DNA of 50,495 nucleotides from a virus. Its lineage: Duplodnaviria; Caudoviricetes. Location of the stretch: the IMG/VR virus record IMGVR_UViG_3300028840_001404, positions 1 to 50,495 of that record; one strand, written 5' to 3'. Shown here piece by piece: positions 1-50,495 of the stretch; positions within the stretch are counted from its first letter, which is position 1, and each line of letters starts with the position of its first letter. The notes beneath the pieces are model-generated. The model saw only the letters and a list, made by a program, of their open reading frames with translations, was not told where the DNA came from and did no database searches. The translations under genes were made by a program, and so were the position numbers.

Positions 1-144
1 CTTTGAGAATTTTACGGGAGGTTAAGGTGAGTTTTTCTAACTACCTTGAGAACGAAGTACTAGACCATGTAATGGGAGTTGGGGCTTATTCTGCTCCTAC
101 TGTGTATGCAGCCTTGTGTACTGCTGATCCCACTGAGGCTGGTA
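1..144 (+). repeat. 144-bp terminal direct repeat (left copy), circular assembly overlap
   Basis: ctttgagaat...gaggctggta is identical to 50352-50495 and falls inside coding sequence. Confidence 0.97.
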
Positions 145-434
145 CTGGAGCTAGTATGAATGAGGTCGCTGATGCAGGAGCATATGCTAGAGTTGCTGTT
201 GCTGGCTCGTTTGGCACCGCTGCTGCTGATGGCTCTATTTCTAATGATGCAGCAATTACATTTACTGAGGCAACAGGTTCCTGGGGAACAGTGACTCATT
301 TTGCGATTGTTGATAGTGGAACACACGGAGCGGGGAACATGCTTGCTTCTGGCGCGTTGTCGGCTTCCAAAACCATCTCCAGTGGAGATATTCCCAGGTT
401 TGCAATTGGGGAATTGCAAATTAATTTAGATTAG
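27..434 (+). CDS. Small tail/tail-fibre-associated virion protein
   Basis: GTG at 27 after GGAGG, just past the upstream TAA (circular 23-25). SNYLENEVLDH...YARVAV...ITF..ATGSWGTVTHFAIVD pattern is typical of phage tail proteins. Confidence 0.75.
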   Translation: MSFSNYLENEVLDHVMGVGAYSAPTVYAALCTADPTEAGTGASMNEVADAGAYARVAVAGSFGTAAADGSISNDAAITFTEATGSWGTVTHFAIVDSGTHGAGNMLASGALSASKTISSGDIPRFAIGELQINLD

Positions 435-454
435 TAAATATTTGATCGACCAAT

Positions 455-1225
455 ATGGCCTTTACTAAACAAGATTATTACGAGACCGGAGATAATTCCG
501 AAGTTGGTACATATTTTTATTACCAACGTGGTCAAGTATTTACTGCTTCTTCAAGTTATACCATCACTAGAGTATCACTAAAAGTTCGTAGACTGTCTGG
601 TTATGACCCTGGCAATGCTAAAGTAGAGCTATTTGCTGTTGATGAGAGTGACCATCCAACTGGGTCTGCCCTAGCTGATGCAACAATTGATGGTGGCACT
701 TTTGGAACTACGGCTGACTGGGAAGATTGGGATTTTAGTGTTGGATATGCTCTATCGTCTGGTACTAAATATGCAATTGTACTATCATGCCCCGATTTAA
801 ATAATAGTTCACTTCTATCGGTCCAGTGGCGAACTGATACTACATCACCAACATATACAGGAGGAGCGGATCTATATTCAGCCAACGGAGGATCAACATG
901 GTCTTCACTTGGCTATGATCTTATGTTCCGCACCTATAGTGGAAGCGACCACGTTACTCGCGAGCTTTCTGGAACTATTGACGGAACCAGCAGTATAACA
1001 GGTATTTTATCTGGAGTTTCACTTGACTTAGCAGGCACTATCACAGGTCAATCCTCTCTGACTGGAACTATTACGCCTACAATTCCATTATCTGGAACAA
1101 TCACGTCTCTTAGTACTGTGGTGGGGACGGTAACATTTGGACCATTAAGTGGAGATAAAGCAGAGAAGGTGAGAAAATACTTGGTTGCTTTTGGAAATGA
1201 TTCTGTTTCTTACGAGAGTGTTTAA
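455..1225 (+). CDS. Virion adhesin-like protein (beta-sandwich, Thr/Ser/Gly linker), paralog of 49189-50376
   Basis: GQVFT..VSLKVRR motif and C-terminal KYLVAFGNDSVSYE shared with 49189-50376; tail context. Confidence 0.65.
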   Translation: MAFTKQDYYETGDNSEVGTYFYYQRGQVFTASSSYTITRVSLKVRRLSGYDPGNAKVELFAVDESDHPTGSALADATIDGGTFGTTADWEDWDFSVGYALSSGTKYAIVLSCPDLNNSSLLSVQWRTDTTSPTYTGGADLYSANGGSTWSSLGYDLMFRTYSGSDHVTRELSGTIDGTSSITGILSGVSLDLAGTITGQSSLTGTITPTIPLSGTITSLSTVVGTVTFGPLSGDKAEKVRKYLVAFGNDSVSYESV

Positions 1226-1228
1226 ACA

Positions 1229-2734
1229 ATGTCTACTCTAACGACAGTTACCGCTTCAATTGGTGATTTGGATACGTCAGATTCCCTTCAAGCATTTGAA
1301 GCTTTCCAGAAAGTTTTTGTAGCAAACGGTACCAATCTCAAAGTGGTTGACTTTGTGAATTGTGAGCTAACCCACACTGCCCTAACAACAGCCCACGCCA
1401 AAGGAGACACTCTTACTCAGGCTACCTCTAATGCTACAATGGTTGTTGACTTCACTAACACAGCTAAGACGAAGACCTATGGGTATGTTACCTCTGGCAC
1501 ATTTGATACGTCAAACTCGGTGACGGGCAGTGGAAGTGGAACAGCATTTACTCCAACTGCTACCGATACAGGAGCACCAGGAGGGAATCAACCTCATTGG
1601 TACGATTGGACGGTATACCCTGGAGGCTCTAGTGGAGCTATGCCAGAGAAGGCATATCTGGGATGTTTGTATCGTGGTCGATGTGTTTTGAGTGGTAATC
1701 CTAATTATCCATACCAATGGTATATGAGTAGAGTTGCCAATCCATTTGATTGGGCTTATACAGCTAATGATTCTTTGTCTCCTATTGCTGGAGGTAATTC
1801 TCAAGTTGGTCAGTTAGGTGATGTGATTAGGGCATTGATTCCTTATCAAGATGAGTACCTGATTTTTGGCTGCTCAAACTCAATCTGGGCTTTGAGGGGG
1901 GATGCTGCTGATGGAGGTTCTTTAACTCCATTAAATGATACGATAGGAATTTTTGGTTATCGGTCTTGGTGTTTTGACAGCAGACTCAATCTATATTTTT
2001 GTTCCAAGACAGGTATTTATAAGATTCCATATGGCTTTGGGCCTGCTCAACCTTTGTCTCAGTTTGTTCTCCCTGATCTGATTGCTGATACAGAACTTGA
2101 CCCAACAGTCCATAGAGTTAGTATGGAATATGACAGGGCACGAGAAGGTATTTTAATTACTATTACTACAATAACAGATGGAAGTAATGTTTGTTATTGG
2201 TATGATCTGAGTACCGAAGGTTTCTATCCTGAGTCTTATCCCAATGTATGTGGGGTCTATTCGTTGCATTTTTATGACTCTAATGATGACGCTGATCGAC
2301 ATTTGTTGCTTGGCAGCACGGATGGATATATTAGACAATTTGATGCCAGTACAAAAAATGATGCAACTACTAATGCAACTTCTGCAATTGAGTCTTATCT
2401 TACTCTTCCTATCATTGTGCCAGAGGATGATGACAATAATGTTCGGATGAATAAGATGTTAATCACTACTGCTGGCGGGGCTTCTGGTGGAAGTGGTTCT
2501 GACACTGATTCGGTTGATGTTGAAGTATATAAAGGAGACGATCCAGAAGAAGTGCTAGAGTCCATAGATGATGGTGATGCTCCATTTAACAGTAAAACTC
2601 TTTCTGGTCCTGGTAGAGCAAACTATATTCGTCAACGGGCAAAGGGGCATGCAGTTGGAATCAGGCTCTCTAATGACTCTGCTTCTAGCACATGGGCAGT
2701 TGAAAAGATTTCTGCTAATCTAACGGAGATATAA
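1229..2734 (+). CDS. Tail nozzle / packaged-DNA stabilisation protein (beta-propeller), main part
   Basis: Repeated beta-blade-like segments (YRGRCVLSG, YLIFGC.NSIWALRG, LYFCSKTGIYKI, LLLGSTDGYIRQF) and C-terminal GIRLSN..W.VE typical of P22 gp10/T7 gp12-like proteins; position after adaptor. Confidence 0.7.
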   Translation: MSTLTTVTASIGDLDTSDSLQAFEAFQKVFVANGTNLKVVDFVNCELTHTALTTAHAKGDTLTQATSNATMVVDFTNTAKTKTYGYVTSGTFDTSNSVTGSGSGTAFTPTATDTGAPGGNQPHWYDWTVYPGGSSGAMPEKAYLGCLYRGRCVLSGNPNYPYQWYMSRVANPFDWAYTANDSLSPIAGGNSQVGQLGDVIRALIPYQDEYLIFGCSNSIWALRGDAADGGSLTPLNDTIGIFGYRSWCFDSRLNLYFCSKTGIYKIPYGFGPAQPLSQFVLPDLIADTELDPTVHRVSMEYDRAREGILITITTITDGSNVCYWYDLSTEGFYPESYPNVCGVYSLHFYDSNDDADRHLLLGSTDGYIRQFDASTKNDATTNATSAIESYLTLPIIVPEDDDNNVRMNKMLITTAGGASGGSGSDTDSVDVEVYKGDDPEEVLESIDDGDAPFNSKTLSGPGRANYIRQRAKGHAVGIRLSNDSASSTWAVEKISANLTEI

Positions 2735-2735
2735 T

Positions 2736-3368
2736 ATGGCGTTTGGCAGACAAAATGTTGGAACGAAAGAGAATCCAATTTGGGTTCAAAGAGGGGCTTC
2801 GGCATATGATATAGCAAATGCTAAAGCAGCGGCTAGAGAACAGGAAGTTCGAGGATTGTTGGACCAGGTTGTCGAGACCTATGCTCCTGGAGGGGCTTAC
2901 CTAAAAGGTGCTGAGGCGATGTTGGGAAGGGAGAAGCAGAAGTACCTTGGCTCTGCAACCCAACAGTTAATCTCTTCTGGTCTGTATGGGACTACTATGG
3001 CTGCTGGTCTTCCAAAGAAATGGGAGGAGGAAGTTGGAATGCCTTCTCGTTTGAAGCTGGAGGATATCAGGACTCAGGCTTACACTGGAGCTTTGGGCCA
3101 AAAGGCAAGCTTCATTGAAAGTATTTCTGAACAAGTGCCGAGTTATGAAACTATCGCTGGCTTGACTTCCCAAGCCGCTGCTGCTCCACAACAAACACTA
3201 AATAGTTGGCTGGCCGAAACTTTTGGTCGGGTTCCTAATGCTGCTACTCCCAAAGCTGATGTCTCTAAACAACAAGCTAGAGCTAGCTTGGCTGAAGATG
3301 ACAGAAGAAGGGCTGCATATCTGGCTCAGCTTCGTGCACAGTATGGAACTGCTGGAGTTGCTTCCTAA
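2736..3368 (+). CDS. Putative ejection (internal virion) protein
   Basis: Ala/Gln-rich, helical, directly after the nozzle as in podoviruses. Confidence 0.5.
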   Translation: MAFGRQNVGTKENPIWVQRGASAYDIANAKAAAREQEVRGLLDQVVETYAPGGAYLKGAEAMLGREKQKYLGSATQQLISSGLYGTTMAAGLPKKWEEEVGMPSRLKLEDIRTQAYTGALGQKASFIESISEQVPSYETIAGLTSQAAAAPQQTLNSWLAETFGRVPNAATPKADVSKQQARASLAEDDRRRAAYLAQLRAQYGTAGVAS

Positions 3369-9605: not shown

Positions 9606-9821
9606 TTAATCTTCGTAAGGTGGATTAAACTCTGGATCACAATCAACAATTTCCAAACATAACGCTGGAGTAATCCAGACTCCCGGTTTTTGGCATGTAT
9701 AACGTTCAAAGTTATACAGCTTTCTGCCTGTGTCTTCTGCAAAAAATTCCTCCAACACTTTCTTCTCTTTCTTTGTGGTAGTAACGATTGTTTCCTCATG
9801 GTTATGATAAACCACAAACAT
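9606..9821 (-). CDS. Hypothetical protein
   Basis: ORF with AAGG SD in the minus-strand operon. Confidence 0.65.
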   Translation of the reverse strand: MFVVYHNHEETIVTTTKKEKKVLEEFFAEDTGRKLYNFERYTCQKPGVWITPALCLEIVDCDPEFNPPYED

Positions 9822-9846
9822 TGTTTTTTACCTTTCCTTATTTTTC

Positions 9847-10281
9847 TTATCTCCGTTCAATAAACTTTCCATCAGAAATTTCCTTCCACTCCTTAGCAGA
9901 AATCTCTCTTGTACTTTTTACTTGTATTGGCTCACGCCACCTGTTTCCTGAGCTAAGGCCGATCAAACAAACCTTTCCAGTACTAACTTGGGCAAGAATG
10001 TATTCTCCATCGCCAAGACTAGCAAATCTTTGACCAACGGCATAAGTTTTTATAAAACCGGTGTCCTCCTTTATATCCTCATCCTCCTCTTCCAAATCAT
10101 TAATATGATCTATCAATATGTTTATATCAGCACGCAAATCATCAGCCAGGTATGCTGAATACTTCTCCTCGTCTACAAGCCGATCATTCAAACTATATAT
10201 CTTTCCCTCTATAATGCCTATCTCATCCCGAATCTCATCAAACATTCCTTCCACATACTTTTTTAGTTCTGCCACAGTCAT
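9847..10281 (-). CDS. Coiled-coil plus SH3/KOW-like domain protein
   Basis: GGAG SD; C-terminal TYAVGQRF...IQVKSTREIS resembles 23753-24091. Confidence 0.7.
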   Translation of the reverse strand: MTVAELKKYVEGMFDEIRDEIGIIEGKIYSLNDRLVDEEKYSAYLADDLRADINILIDHINDLEEEDEDIKEDTGFIKTYAVGQRFASLGDGEYILAQVSTGKVCLIGLSSGNRWREPIQVKSTREISAKEWKEISDGKFIERR

Positions 10282-10292
10282 AATATAGTCTC

Positions 10293-10535
10293 CTAATAGA
10301 CGTCCCCATTTTGTTTGATCTTCAAAGCCTCATAGCTTGCAGCTATACGACGATACATTTCCAACTTCATACACTCCAGTACTCCAATTACCTCATTGAT
10401 GTGTTGGTAGTTAACCCCCTTTCTGTCCAGATAATCCAGACACTCTCTTGTTAGACAATAGTTTAACTCTCCAGCATTTCTTGGATCAGTCCCTTTAGCG
10501 ATTTCGTCTCTTGCAGCTTGGGTAATATAGGGCAT
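10293..10535 (-). CDS. Conserved phage protein (DUF6899-like)
   Basis: MPYI...GELNY.LT...IGVLECMKLEMYRR...YE..KI..NGDVY signature. Confidence 0.7.
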   Translation of the reverse strand: MPYITQAARDEIAKGTDPRNAGELNYCLTRECLDYLDRKGVNYQHINEVIGVLECMKLEMYRRIAASYEALKIKQNGDVY

Positions 10536-10578
10536 GTTATAGTTCCTTTAAGGGTAAAAAGTTGGTAGTTAAGTTAAA

Positions 10579-10911
10579 CTACTTCTCTGGTGGTCTGGCC
10601 CCTCCATAAACCCAAGCATGCCAATCTGTTGAAGTTGGTTTTTGACATTTGATGATAATTGGGTCTTCACCAATCTCAATCTTGTTGTGACAGTCTAAGC
10701 ACAAAGTTTCCAAATTTGCCATGGTGTTTTTTCCTCACTTAGAACGAGGAAGAATATGGTGTGTGGTTAAATTCTTTTTTGAGCCACAGCTTCGGCATTT
10801 ACCTCCATCTCTTTTATTTACACGCTCACAGAGCCTTTTCCATTTAACCATATTAAACTGGTCTTTTCGGCTACATCCATACACTTTTGCTTGCCAAGGG
10901 TCCGCCAACAT
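10579..10911 (-). pseudogene. HNH endonuclease with an in-frame TGA (not in ORF track)
   Basis: AAGGAGG-ATG; reads RDGGKCRSCG..THHILPRSK*GKNTMANLETLCLDCHNK. TGA at 10735-10737 sits where the conserved GG is expected. Confidence 0.8.
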
Positions 10912-10976
10912 ACACCTCCTTCTTTTAATTGATTCTAGCCCCCAGAACCCCCACTTAATCGGGGTCTGGAGAGAAA

Positions 10977-11147
10977 CTAACCCGTCTCACGCTACTTGTA
11001 CAGAGGACATTCTGTGTCGGTACACAATTTTACCTCATTTGGATCATATCCACAGCACTCCAAGCACTGAAGTCGGATGGCCGATTTCCTACTACTCTTC
11101 CTTTTATTATATAATCCTCTGTATTTATTTGGTATTTCTCTAGACAT
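10977..11147 (-). pseudogene. Small Cys-rich zinc-finger protein with a premature TAG near the C-terminus
   Basis: SAIRLQCLECCGYDPNEVKLCTDTECPLYK*RETG*. First TAG at 10992-10994, where I recall this family having CPLxxYRxG. Confidence 0.55.
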
Positions 11148-11341
11148 CACAAATCCTCTGGATTGGTATTCAGACCAGCGTTGAACCCCTTTTCGTACCC
11201 CATCTTTTCGTACCCTGCAATACAGTCTTCACAAAGGTAAACGTCCAGTTCTCCCTGTTCTACACCTTGAACAGTCCAGACAAATTCTAGTTCTTTCCCA
11301 CATTCTGCACAGTAGGTTTTCATCAATTTTTCCTCCAACAA
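11147..11341 (-). CDS. Small zinc-ribbon protein
   Basis: CAEC and CEDC pairs. Confidence 0.6.
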   Translation of the reverse strand: MLEEKLMKTYCAECGKELEFVWTVQGVEQGELDVYLCEDCIAGYEKMGYEKGFNAGLNTNPEDL

Positions 11342-43683: not shown

Positions 43684-44394
43684 ATGATTAACAGGAATTA
43701 TCATATGAAGGTGTGTGTTCATTGTGGTCAGAAAAAGAACCTAAGTGAGTTCCATGCCGACAGGTCACAATCTGACGGTGTAAGAACAACCTGCAAGGAG
43801 TGCTCTAAGGAGTATTCTAGACTAAGAAACTTGTCCAAAACAACAGGACAGGGTTTTGTTTGGAATACAAAGAAGATAGTTCCAAATGGATATAAACGCT
43901 GTGGTTCATGTGACCAAGTAAAAACTCTTGATGAGTTTGGTGCAAGAGAAAGAACACAAGATGGCAAGCGTTATAGTTGTAAAGAATGTGTGAATCTTCA
44001 AAACCAAGCCAGGATTGATTCTCTGGAAGGTATTGAAAGAGAAAAACACTTAGCTATTGCTAGGCAGAAATCCAGCAAAGCTCGTCAAACCGAGAAAGAG
44101 TTTTATGGTCCTTATTATACTGTGGTCCTAAATTGTAGAAGTATGGCTTCTAAGACCAACCACTCTTGGCAAGAGGTAGAATGCTGGTACGCCAAAACCT
44201 TCATGAGGCAGCAAGCACGTTGTGCAATCTGTGGTACAATTCCTGAAACCTTGTGTATAGACCACGACCACGAAACGCTGGAACTTCGTGGTCTATTGTG
44301 TAAAAACTGTAATACTGGAATAGGAATGCTGCAAGATTCAGCGGATATTTGCTCCTCAGCAGTTTCCTATCTACAAAATTTTAAAGGAGTATAG
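43684..44394 (+). CDS. Endonuclease VII-family homing endonuclease with two zinc-finger repeats
   Basis: Q..RCAICG..LCIDHDHET..LRGLLCKNCNTGIG. Confidence 0.88.
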   Translation: MINRNYHMKVCVHCGQKKNLSEFHADRSQSDGVRTTCKECSKEYSRLRNLSKTTGQGFVWNTKKIVPNGYKRCGSCDQVKTLDEFGARERTQDGKRYSCKECVNLQNQARIDSLEGIEREKHLAIARQKSSKARQTEKEFYGPYYTVVLNCRSMASKTNHSWQEVECWYAKTFMRQQARCAICGTIPETLCIDHDHETLELRGLLCKNCNTGIGMLQDSADICSSAVSYLQNFKGV

Positions 44395-48959: not shown

Positions 48960-49184
48960 ATGCAGAAGCTTCCGCTGCCAATCAAAGGTTTAAACCGAGG
49001 GATAACCGTTGCCTTAACTCCAACGGAGTATACTACTAATATAAATAATGTCCGTCCTAAAGATGTGCTAGAGAACAGATTTAGAATGGGGCAGAGGCCA
49101 GGACTAAAGAAGTGGTCTACCGATAGAGTAGGTGGTGACAACCAACCTGTGATTGAAATTGTTTCTGTAAGTTCAATCAGTTAA
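48960..49184 (+). CDS. Detached N-terminal segment of tail nozzle protein
   Basis: LPLPIKGLN...NNVRP...R...RPGL resembles the GGLN...N...RPG N-terminus of nozzle/gp10-like proteins. Confidence 0.6.
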   Translation: MQKLPLPIKGLNRGITVALTPTEYTTNINNVRPKDVLENRFRMGQRPGLKKWSTDRVGGDNQPVIEIVSVSSIS

Positions 49185-49188
49185 AATT

Positions 49189-50376
49189 ATGGCTACTCTT
49201 TATTCATATACTCCATATAATGAAGCCCTAGATGATCCAATAAATACAGCAAGTTCAAAGGGACAGGTTTTTACTTTATCTTCTGGGGGAACTGTTGAAT
49301 CTGTTACTCTTCGGGTTCGTCGGGTAAATAATGCTACTAATTGCAGGGTATCGTTATATTCTACTTCTGGTGGATTGCCCCTTGCTGAATTAGCTTATGT
49401 GGATGTAGACCCTTCTGGATGGAGTACGGGATATAATGACCTTGTTTTTACTTTTGACACCCCTTATGAAGCTGAGGCAGAAACATATTGTATTGTACTC
49501 TCTTCAACAGATGCTCCTTTTGATAATCCAAGTTGGGCTGTTTCAACAGATAATAATGGAACAGAGGCAGTATGGACAGTTGGTGGAGTTTGGGAAGTAT
49601 TTGTTGGACCAAGAGGACATTCTTTAACTGTTTCTGGAACTGAGGCAGGGCATGTCAAAGCCTCTAATCCTACTCCAGCCAATGGAGCTACAGAGGTAGA
49701 CTTTTCTGGCTACACTCTGTCTTGGGATGGGAATGGAGATACGTATGATGTTCGTGGAGGAGCTGCGGGTAATTTTGTCCTTCTAGCCTCTGGTATTTCT
49801 GACAAAACCTATACTTTGGATTCTAGTGAAGTCCCTTTGTTCAAGGAGGGTGTTGTCACTTGGCGTGTTGATTCAACTAAAGATACAGAGACTTTAACTG
49901 GAGATGAGTGGACATTTGACCCTCGTCCGGGAAAAGCGTCCTCTCCTACCCCTTCAGATGAAGGAACGGATATCTCTATCGAACAAGACTTCTCTTGGAC
50001 GATTGGTACAAATGGCACAACGAACGATCTTGTTCTAGCAGGTTCTACCATTCTCAGTGGAAGTACTGACACTTCATACAGTCTGGCTGCTGATCTGTTT
50101 GATTGGGAAGACAGTGTTGAATGGAGGGTAGACAGTATTAATGAGTTTGGTACTACAACTGGTGATACCTGGGGTTTTACGGCTAAAGATTTGGACCATC
50201 TCCGAATTACTTATAACTTGATTGATGGAGGAAGTGGTAATGGTCCTTATGACGATCCGGCCGGAGTAGAAGGTGTAGACTACTTTTGGACTGGATTAAA
50301 TAACGTTATAACAGTTAAACGGTTAGTCATGTTTGGTAAGGACCGTTGTTACTTTGAGAATTTTACGGGAGGTTAA
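49189..50376 (+). CDS. Virion adhesin-like protein with two FN3-like repeats
   Basis: GQVFT domain, two KAS.PTP...WRVDS...TGD.W.F repeats, C-terminal KRLVMFGKDRCYFE. Confidence 0.7.
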   Translation: MATLYSYTPYNEALDDPINTASSKGQVFTLSSGGTVESVTLRVRRVNNATNCRVSLYSTSGGLPLAELAYVDVDPSGWSTGYNDLVFTFDTPYEAEAETYCIVLSSTDAPFDNPSWAVSTDNNGTEAVWTVGGVWEVFVGPRGHSLTVSGTEAGHVKASNPTPANGATEVDFSGYTLSWDGNGDTYDVRGGAAGNFVLLASGISDKTYTLDSSEVPLFKEGVVTWRVDSTKDTETLTGDEWTFDPRPGKASSPTPSDEGTDISIEQDFSWTIGTNGTTNDLVLAGSTILSGSTDTSYSLAADLFDWEDSVEWRVDSINEFGTTTGDTWGFTAKDLDHLRITYNLIDGGSGNGPYDDPAGVEGVDYFWTGLNNVITVKRLVMFGKDRCYFENFTGG

Positions 50377-50495
50377 GGTGAGTTTTTCTAACTACCTTGA
50401 GAACGAAGTACTAGACCATGTAATGGGAGTTGGGGCTTATTCTGCTCCTACTGTGTATGCAGCCTTGTGTACTGCTGATCCCACTGAGGCTGGTA
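50352..50495 (+). repeat. 144-bp terminal direct repeat (right copy)
   Basis: Identical to 1-144. Confidence 0.97.

Follow-up and report, generated by a model that had tools for sequence, protein, structure and literature searches.

How is a podophage nozzle put together when the gene for it occurs in pieces? This question is raised by a locus in the virus record IMGVR_UViG_3300028840_001404 (Duplodnaviria; Caudoviricetes), of which the whole stretch of 50,495 nucleotides (nt; positions 1 to 50,495 of the record, one strand), referred to below as the window, was analysed. A sequence-only reading of this DNA had noted four open reading frames (ORFs), at 455-1225, 1229-2734, 48960-49184 and 49189-50376, which are all present on the plus strand and encode proteins of 256, 501, 74 and 395 amino acids (aa), respectively; it had proposed that a nozzle propeller is formed here from three polypeptides by beta-strand complementation. 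We consider it likely that several polypeptides, which some relatives make as one chain, come together in the nozzle protomer of this phage. The two ends of the window are identical over 144 base pairs (bp; 1-144 = 50352-50495), so that the record represents a genome of 50,351 bp that is either circularly closed or terminally redundant, and because of this overlap the genes in question are adjacent on the circle, in the order 74 aa, 395 aa, gp80-like (135 aa), 256 aa and 501 aa. The gp80-like gene, which sits between the two genes for adhesin-like proteins, was absent from the sequence-only reading.

The 501-aa protein (1229..2734) consists of a beta-propeller and distal domains, and its AlphaFold2 model, obtained from 37 relatives, has a predicted local distance difference test score (pLDDT) of 80.9 and a predicted template modelling score (pTM) of 0.73. 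When this model was searched with Foldseek, nozzle chains took the top 30 ranks, with expectation (E) values ranging from 1.6e-13 (9k09_U) to 6.4e-7 (8jov_A of phage GP4); the matches include the nozzles of A4 (1.6e-13), Pa223 (2.2e-12), P22 (gp10, 3.3e-11) and GP4 (6.4e-7), as well as those of LME-1, SU10, T7 (gp12), VP1 and Sf6. Alignment to the Pa223 nozzle with VIA-align gave a Z of 18.8 and a root-mean-square deviation of 4.4 over 379 aligned residues, and other nozzles gave Z of 16.1-17.9. Cellular and unrelated WD40 propellers reach Z of 16-17 with the propeller part alone, and the nozzles are set apart from them because of their longer aligned length (343-411 residues versus ~250). In every nozzle row, residue 1 of the model aligns to residues 49-107 of the solved chains (VIA ranges report the first and last aligned residues only), so the nozzle N-terminus is absent from the 501-aa protein; the sequence-only reading had said as much, and the fused relatives described below agree. 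On its predicted fold, the 501-aa protein is a podophage nozzle core without the N-terminal platform segment. Its residues 1-20, folded alone, do not form a strand (pLDDT 70-73). At the sequence level, the core matches the tail protein family phrog_376 (E 4.6e-5), no similarity to the solved single-chain nozzles was detected, and tblastn against 50,697 phage records, a collection that may not include the Pseudomonas phage A1002 discussed below or its genus, returned no match. The core family is large in metagenomes, with 706 proteins at E ≤ 0.001 among 8,000 candidates scored.

Where the missing N-terminus is encoded is indicated by related loci, collected by a scan of IMG/VR in which 216 of 222 candidate stretches were confirmed and the best 80 kept. 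In total, 81 loci were analysed (some of them one contig twice), their plus-strand ORFs were called and searched with the window proteins (2,052 ORFs), and architectures were counted in the 61 loci that are complete and non-redundant. In 71 of the 81 loci a homolog of the 74-aa protein (48960..49184) is encoded upstream of the core, most of the others being cut short, and 0 to 4 genes separate the two. A profile of 46 members of this family, searched against 1.84 billion representative proteins, gave 1,248 matches at E ≤ 0.001 and 109 at E ≤ 1e-10. Among the best 150 matches, 85 are at most 110 aa long, 28 measure 111-399 aa and 37 have 400 aa or more; these long proteins match the profile at their extreme N-terminus, and a 501-aa-type core follows downstream in 30 of them (phmmer E 1e-31 to 8e-141). 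The protein P0145 (772 aa) runs from the 74-aa module through a head and a hairpin to the core, whereas in P0184 (690 aa) and P0246 a linker of ~8-15 residues, and in P0157 (930 aa) a long and different insert, stands between module and hairpin. To judge from these sequences, the 74-aa gene is the detached nozzle N-terminus, as the sequence-only reading had suspected. Neither PHROGs nor Pfam holds a family for the 74-aa or the 256-aa protein, and the 46 members of the 74-aa alignment gave single-member matches against PHROGs, at E 0.07 or worse.

The second gene border can be followed in the same way. Twelve cores of 697-759 aa are colinear with the 256-aa protein followed by the 501-aa protein, presenting in this order a Q-x-F-T head, a hairpin motif of the type K/R-x-L-V-A-x-G-N-x-x-x-W/Y-Y-E, three residues and the core N-terminus. 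Two of the twelve, in L044 (758 aa) and L072 (759 aa), contain serial rope repeats and have a gp80-like gene upstream, and further fused cores occur in L036, L045, L061, L067, L069, L074 and L078. Fused versions of the locus, which the sequence-only reading had hoped to find by alignment, thus exist in forms of 697-759 aa and of 690-930 aa. Since these relatives are colinear with the window, positions 455-2734 represent the split version of a gene that is whole elsewhere, and the 74-aa, 256-aa and 501-aa genes are the pieces of one nozzle.

The element that lies at the breakpoints is the hairpin. A hidden Markov model (HMM) built from the fused forms and run on the ORFs of the 81 loci (score above 6 bits) found it in 46 of 67 distinct cores, at residues ~8-35 in 35 of them and after an N-terminal domain in 11. 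All 80 distinct carriers other than cores have it 0-5 residues from the C-terminus, 59 of them exactly one residue before the stop, and the genes of the carriers always lie in the interval from the 74-aa gene to the core. The carriers are diverse, comprising proteins with heads resembling carbohydrate-binding modules (CBMs), W-R-I/V-D domains or LamG-like domains and small proteins of 66-129 aa, so that the variable adhesins keeping a terminal motif that had been anticipated are indeed found at homologous loci. Within the window, the claim that the two adhesin-like proteins share a terminal hairpin stands in this family context. For the pair taken alone, the similarity of the last 14-16 residues is not significant: BLASTP between the 256-aa and 395-aa proteins did not report the terminal motif, and the HMM scores the 256-aa copy at 30.1 bits (independent E 1.4e-8) and the 395-aa copy at 2.6 bits. 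The AlphaFold2 model of the 256-aa protein places hairpin strands at 242-247 and 250-255 (pLDDT 72-77); the putative docking hairpin occupies residues 241-254 (1175..1216).

Two classes of hairpin can be distinguished, class A standing in the core or directly before it and class B standing in a separate protein, usually after G-x-N-N-x-I-T. In leave-one-out assignment, 43 of 45 class-A segments and 51 of 56 class-B segments were classified correctly, a signal that comes partly from the flanks of the hairpin. The 256-aa copy would belong to class A; the copy of the 395-aa protein, at residues 377-390 (50317-50358), falls in class B with a score of -15.5. The 395-aa protein (49189..50376) is composed of a GQVFT-type head, two internal repeats ending in WRVDS, a linker and this hairpin; it matches phrog_877 (E 1.4e-4), and its C-terminal segment aligns with 30 relatives.

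What the hairpin would do was modelled in a complex of four chains, namely the core, the 74-aa protein, the last 57 residues of the 256-aa protein and the last 66 residues of the 395-aa protein, the last of these being the scored partner. The score was 0.86, compared with 0.00 for the best of three controls; at least 59% of contacts recur between runs, and the partner has a pLDDT of 60 or more. Partner residues 44-63, which form the hairpin, touch residues 57-59 and 62-74 of the 74-aa protein, the latter range being its conserved last strand, and also core residues 2-7, 10-16, 20, 22, 29, 31, 38, 40, 42, 116, 122, 124 and 347-368. In the tightest pairs, the first hairpin strand is next to residues 64-70 of the 74-aa protein, and the second adjoins core residues 5-7. 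The modelled meander, in which the last strand of the 74-aa protein is followed by the hairpin and then by the first core strand, matches the order in P0184. The model supports, though it does not prove, docking of the 395-aa hairpin by strand pairing between the C-terminal strand of the 74-aa protein and the core N-terminus. Colinearity with the fused relatives places the 256-aa hairpin directly before the core, while the complex score concerns the 395-aa hairpin. Of the proposed strand complementation, then, the splitting of the nozzle is borne out by the fused relatives and the docking of a hairpin is a prediction of the model, which yields a docked 395-aa hairpin (0.86 versus 0.00) and names no contact of the 256-aa one.

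Does a protomer offer one docking site or two? The sequence-only reading took the two adhesin-like proteins for interchangeable donors of the strands missing from one site. The census of loci speaks against this, as 50 of the 61 carry two hairpins (nine carry one and two carry three), and 34 have one of them at the core's own N-terminus. These 34 loci consist of the 74-aa gene, a protein ending in a hairpin and a core that begins with one. Nine loci are of the window's type, with the 74-aa gene, a first hairpin protein, a gp80-like gene, a second hairpin protein and a bare core, and four are of this type without the gp80-like gene. In seven, the 74-aa gene is accompanied by a fused domain-hairpin-core and nothing else; in two, it is followed by a small hairpin protein, a gp80-like gene and a fused domain-rope-hairpin-core; the remaining five have other arrangements.

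An arrangement in which each protomer has a single site, for which the 256-aa and 395-aa hairpins compete, so that virions would carry mixed or regulated receptor-binding attachments, corresponds to the plug-in system of the sequence-only reading and nevertheless deserves attention, and we regard it as unlikely rather than implausible. The model placed the 395-aa hairpin where single-chain relatives such as P0184 and P0246 have their only hairpin, although the modelled complex also contained the 256-aa hairpin, and both window hairpins share K-x-L-V-x-F-G-x-D...Y/F-E. Against competition, a covalent hairpin three residues from the core, as in the 34 loci above, should fill its own site and win it, yet the hairpin supplied in trans is strongly conserved, so a second place is the simpler explanation. 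Moreover, the hairpin classes are separable, class B has its own conserved upstream G-x-N-N-x-I-T, and the existence of very small class-B proteins (66-129 aa) suggests a structural slot of their own. Simultaneous and non-equivalent docking of an A and a B hairpin is therefore what we infer ahead of competition, a choice that a single model does not decide.

Several observations weigh against an assembled nozzle with two docking places, and they should be read together. The location that the model gives the 395-aa hairpin, at the position of the single hairpin in single-chain relatives, is equally compatible with competition for one site and with a failure of the model to distinguish the two hairpins. 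No residue of the 256-aa hairpin is named at the interface, a silence that is not evidence of no contact. The score mark, reached by 58 of 80 solved complexes and by 2 of 110 mismatched pairs, is a calibration that holds roughly here, as the complex was modelled with four chains, monomer copies and author-built alignments. In seven of the 61 loci there is one hairpin and no accessory protein at all. The class-A score of the 256-aa hairpin is low (+1.1), no more than 12 of 19 split-off hairpins are assigned to class A, and the two hairpins of the window are unusually alike, both having F-G where class B usually has A-A. Finally, phmmer of all four proteins against solved chains gave no sequence match, and the profiles of the core (A1) and of the 74-aa protein (A2) found nothing among these chains except a nanobody at E 1.1. 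What identifies the 74-aa protein is its fusion to cores in metagenomic relatives, as opposed to a solved structure.

A further question concerns the border between the 256-aa and 501-aa ORFs. As had been pointed out, the two are in frame, separated by TAA (1223-1225) and ACA ahead of the ATG at 1229, the junction thus occupying 1223..1228; an in-frame placement arises by chance in 1 of 3 cases. From this the sequence-only reading had derived a covalent form made by readthrough of the TAA, and one may go further and take 455-2734 as one gene whose stop is read through, suppressed, or the product of a recent or artefactual nonsense change. The hypothetical 759-aa product would fall in the length class of the fused relatives that follow a gp80-like gene (759 and 758 aa). 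We hold this to be very improbable. Among 24 related loci with a split junction (19 distinct junctions), two are in frame, as compared with about eight expected by chance, and in many the stop and start codons overlap (TAATG, ATGA). L001, L004, L009, L010 and L002, the closest relatives (66-77% identity), all have the split, with the two ORFs in different frames or the stop overlapping the start; the core begins with an ATG of its own; the neighbouring 74-aa and 395-aa genes likewise end in TAA; and no tRNA gene was found in the window. Contigs from two runs of two studies (50,381 and 50,366 bp) cover 400-2800 with 0 differences, the TAA included, although the window may itself derive from either run and rare variants do not show in contigs. 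The gene split is old and real, and nothing points to low-level readthrough. One of the matching contigs was assembled from a sediment metagenome of 2018, the other from a seawater metagenome of 2021, and at 2179-2241 the window is overlapped by short contigs of a relative, which have G>A at 2209.

That the C-terminal motif is instead a non-docking element, serving self-association or as a folding or assembly signal, with the 395-aa protein attached elsewhere on the tail, is hardly credible, for although the hairpin is seen in no solved structure and the case for docking consists of one model plus synteny, the motif is internal to the nozzle polypeptide and directly before the core in the fused and hairpin-core forms, its carriers never leave the interval between the 74-aa gene and the core, and the complex score drops from 0.86 to 0.00 once the partner or the core is replaced.

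The assembly that we favour, a nozzle protomer made of several polypeptides, can be pictured as follows. The ancestral chain would have comprised the 74-aa N-terminal module, an insertion site, the 20-residue beta-hairpin and a core of ~500 aa, and the window phage would have two cuts in it, one behind the 74-aa module and one behind the hairpin. The latter cut would leave the hairpin at the extreme C-terminus of the 256-aa protein, with the core starting three residues later. The 256-aa protein would be a nozzle-rope, made of a CBM-like head and three repeats that would each hold a gp80-like dimer to give a chain-like fibre, and its hairpin would anchor this whole fibre in the nozzle by strand insertion. 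The class-B hairpin of the 395-aa protein would most likely dock simultaneously in the same sheet, alongside the final strand of the 74-aa protein. The order of strands would then be that of the genes, with the 74-aa strand followed by the B hairpin, the A hairpin and the core N-terminus.

Two parts of the 256-aa protein (455..1225) precede the hairpin. Its head, a beta-sandwich at residues 1-165 (455..949), shares with the 395-aa protein the GQVFT domain that the sequence-only reading had noted, as BLASTP aligns the two heads at E 5e-6 with 43% identity over 37 residues around GQVFT. The AlphaFold2 model of residues 1-160 has a pLDDT mostly of 91-98 per 10-residue block (76 for block 111-120), and Foldseek relates it to phi812 baseplate chains (E 2.4e-7 and 1.1e-6) and to the central fibre gp20 of mycobacteriophage Douge (4.6e-5), with weaker matches to CBM36/CBM6 entries. 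Both heads presumably have a receptor-binding role. The rope region, at residues ~170-240 (963..1174), contains three repeats of the type L-S/A-G-T-I-x-G-x-S-S-x-T-G and is disordered when folded alone (pLDDT 47-61).

The gp80-like gene (27..434) has a GTG start 6 nt after GGAGG, a start that agrees with the 135-aa homolog of L001. Its product matches PF23140 (podophage GP4 fiber I protein gp80) at E 6.3e-42 and 143.4 bits, against a cutoff of 27, over profile positions 2-127 of 128, and phrog_240 at E 2.5e-27. Such a gene lies between the 74-aa gene and the core in 12 loci, in 11 of which hairpin A is found in a separate protein or after a domain within the core. From one to five rope repeats are present in the ORF after the gp80-like gene, or in the fused core, of L001, L002, L009, L010, L013, L031, L034, L041, L044, L055 and L072, and L004 has degenerate repeats only. 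The 256-aa protein looks like a nozzle-rope protein comparable to that described for phage A1002 (PMC13730344), and by analogy its rope would bind gp80-like dimers and carry about three of them. In L014-L017 and L054, the gp80-like gene is followed by a protein of 406-489 aa that by eye resembles a right-handed beta-helix of the depolymerase type, and then by a small hairpin ORF of 102-171 aa. Downstream of the fused nozzle of L078, at ~9,700-11,298, a gp80-like gene accompanies a 374-aa protein with a Q-x-F-T-type head and about eight serial repeats but without the hairpin; the two may form a chain-like fibre that is anchored in another way. Gp80-like proteins occur in 134 of the 50,697 phage records, including Ralstonia, Mycobacterium, Caulobacter and Stenotrophomonas phages. 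In phiM5 and Venkman the gene, annotated in Venkman as "tail tube B", follows tail tubular protein A, and no hairpin-core arrangement is annotated there.

How does this locus compare with nozzles of known structure? The nozzles of T7 (gp12), P22 (gp10), Sf6 (gp8), Pa223, VP1, GP4 and SU10 have the same fold and are encoded in a structural block next to fibre genes, but each is one polypeptide that includes the first 49-107 residues absent from the window core. The only solved precedent of a split nozzle that we found is that of Pseudomonas phage A1002, published in November 2026 and presented as a singular case (PMC13730344). Its nozzle consists of the nozzle-rope gp39 and the nozzle-base gp42, with fibre dimers of gp40 and gp41; gp42 has a truncated platform but keeps its own short N-terminal platform strands, and both this platform and its first two blades are completed by the C-terminal 150 residues of gp39; and the genes are ordered rope, fibre, fibre, base (PMC13730344). 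In A1002 and in GP4, gp80-like dimers are described as sitting on the rope by strand augmentation (PMC13730344).

The two phages have in common a core truncated at its N-terminal platform and adjacent genes for rope, gp80-like fibre and core. Completion of this core by the C-terminal strands of a separate rope protein, with binding sites for gp80-like dimers in the N-terminal part of the rope, is seen in A1002 and would hold for the window phage as well. They differ in that A1002 donates ~150 residues (platform-C and propeller-C) and the window phage would donate a 20-residue hairpin, in that the N-terminal 74 residues form a third gene and a second hairpin-bearing protein is present in the window phage, and in gene order, the fibre gene of the window preceding the rope gene whereas those of A1002 lie between rope and base. 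The rope would have about 3 repeats as opposed to 11 sites in A1002, and the distal domain is a CBM-like sandwich instead of an Ig-like one. As in the chain-like fibre I of the Ralstonia phage GP4, whose gp80 dimers sit on a rope encoded by a gene of its own, a gp80-family subunit adjoins a protein with short serial repeats, yet the GP4 rope is, in the same account, anchored to the fibre-tail adaptor, with the fibre on the capsid (PMC13730344), while that of the window ends in the nozzle hairpin. P0145, P0157, P0184, P0246 and the fused cores of the related loci have the same modules in the same order, in one or two polypeptides as against the four of the window.

Insertions were also seen at other places in the nozzle family. 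In seven members of the 74-aa family of 248-372 aa (P0194, P0196, P0200, P0205, P0209, P0222 and P0223), a domain is inserted before the last strand, and the proteins still end with this strand (P-V-V-A-M-x-Q-V...). Since the strand is retained at the C-terminus despite the insertions, it would be the part that must be kept, and these sequences make the site before it a putative third hot spot for insertions in the N-terminal part of the nozzle. In L003, a Q-x-F-T head is inserted after about residue 55 of the 641-aa core (L003/L011, 780-2705), and a CBM_5_12 module is present near residue 545 of the P0072 core (27.5 bits against a cutoff of 26.2) and, scoring below the Pfam cutoff, in the P0058 core.

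Elsewhere in the window, a 210-aa ORF directly after the core (2736-3368) has homologs at the equivalent position in 64 of the 81 loci, and searches of PHROG and Pfam gave no family for it. Within the structural block, a 236-aa ORF at 43684-44394, CxxC-rich and with an HNH-like C-terminal part by eye, is flanked by a 369-aa ORF with a weak major-head-protein match and by a 419-aa ORF. A host scan of bacterial and archaeal genomes returned contigs of 6 metagenome-assembled genomes from six different lineages and no usable host signal.

In short-tailed phages, it is normally the N-terminus of a tail fibre that binds to the adaptor-nozzle junction. The diverse binding proteins seen here appear to use their extreme C-terminus instead, donating strands to the nozzle. 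Fission of the nozzle, at defined points flanking one hairpin, would seem to be widespread, in view of the 706 relatives of the core, the 1,248 of the 74-aa module and the at least nine architectures among the 61 loci, and the series of fused, half-split and fully split forms would allow the order of assembly to be tested. The hairpin would also serve as a small and portable docking tag for mounting binding modules on the podophage nozzle in laboratory phage-bacterium systems. The 74-aa, 256-aa and 395-aa proteins, which would otherwise be annotated as hypothetical, would be nozzle parts or attachments. From the related loci, modular docking of this kind seems to be general in a large group of uncultured podophages. 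In its strongest form, which we put forward tentatively and for which the odds seem to us slightly less than even, a large uncultured podophage family would build its N-terminal nozzle sheet from up to four polypeptides and use the C-terminal 20-residue hairpin as a universal plug for two non-equivalent slots, A and B, in each protomer. If this is true, any module gaining the hairpin, be it a CBM-like head, a LamG-like domain, a beta-helix depolymerase-like protein or a chain-like fibre, would become a nozzle-mounted receptor-binding device, and the interval from the 74-aa gene to the core would be where host-range modules are exchanged as cassettes.

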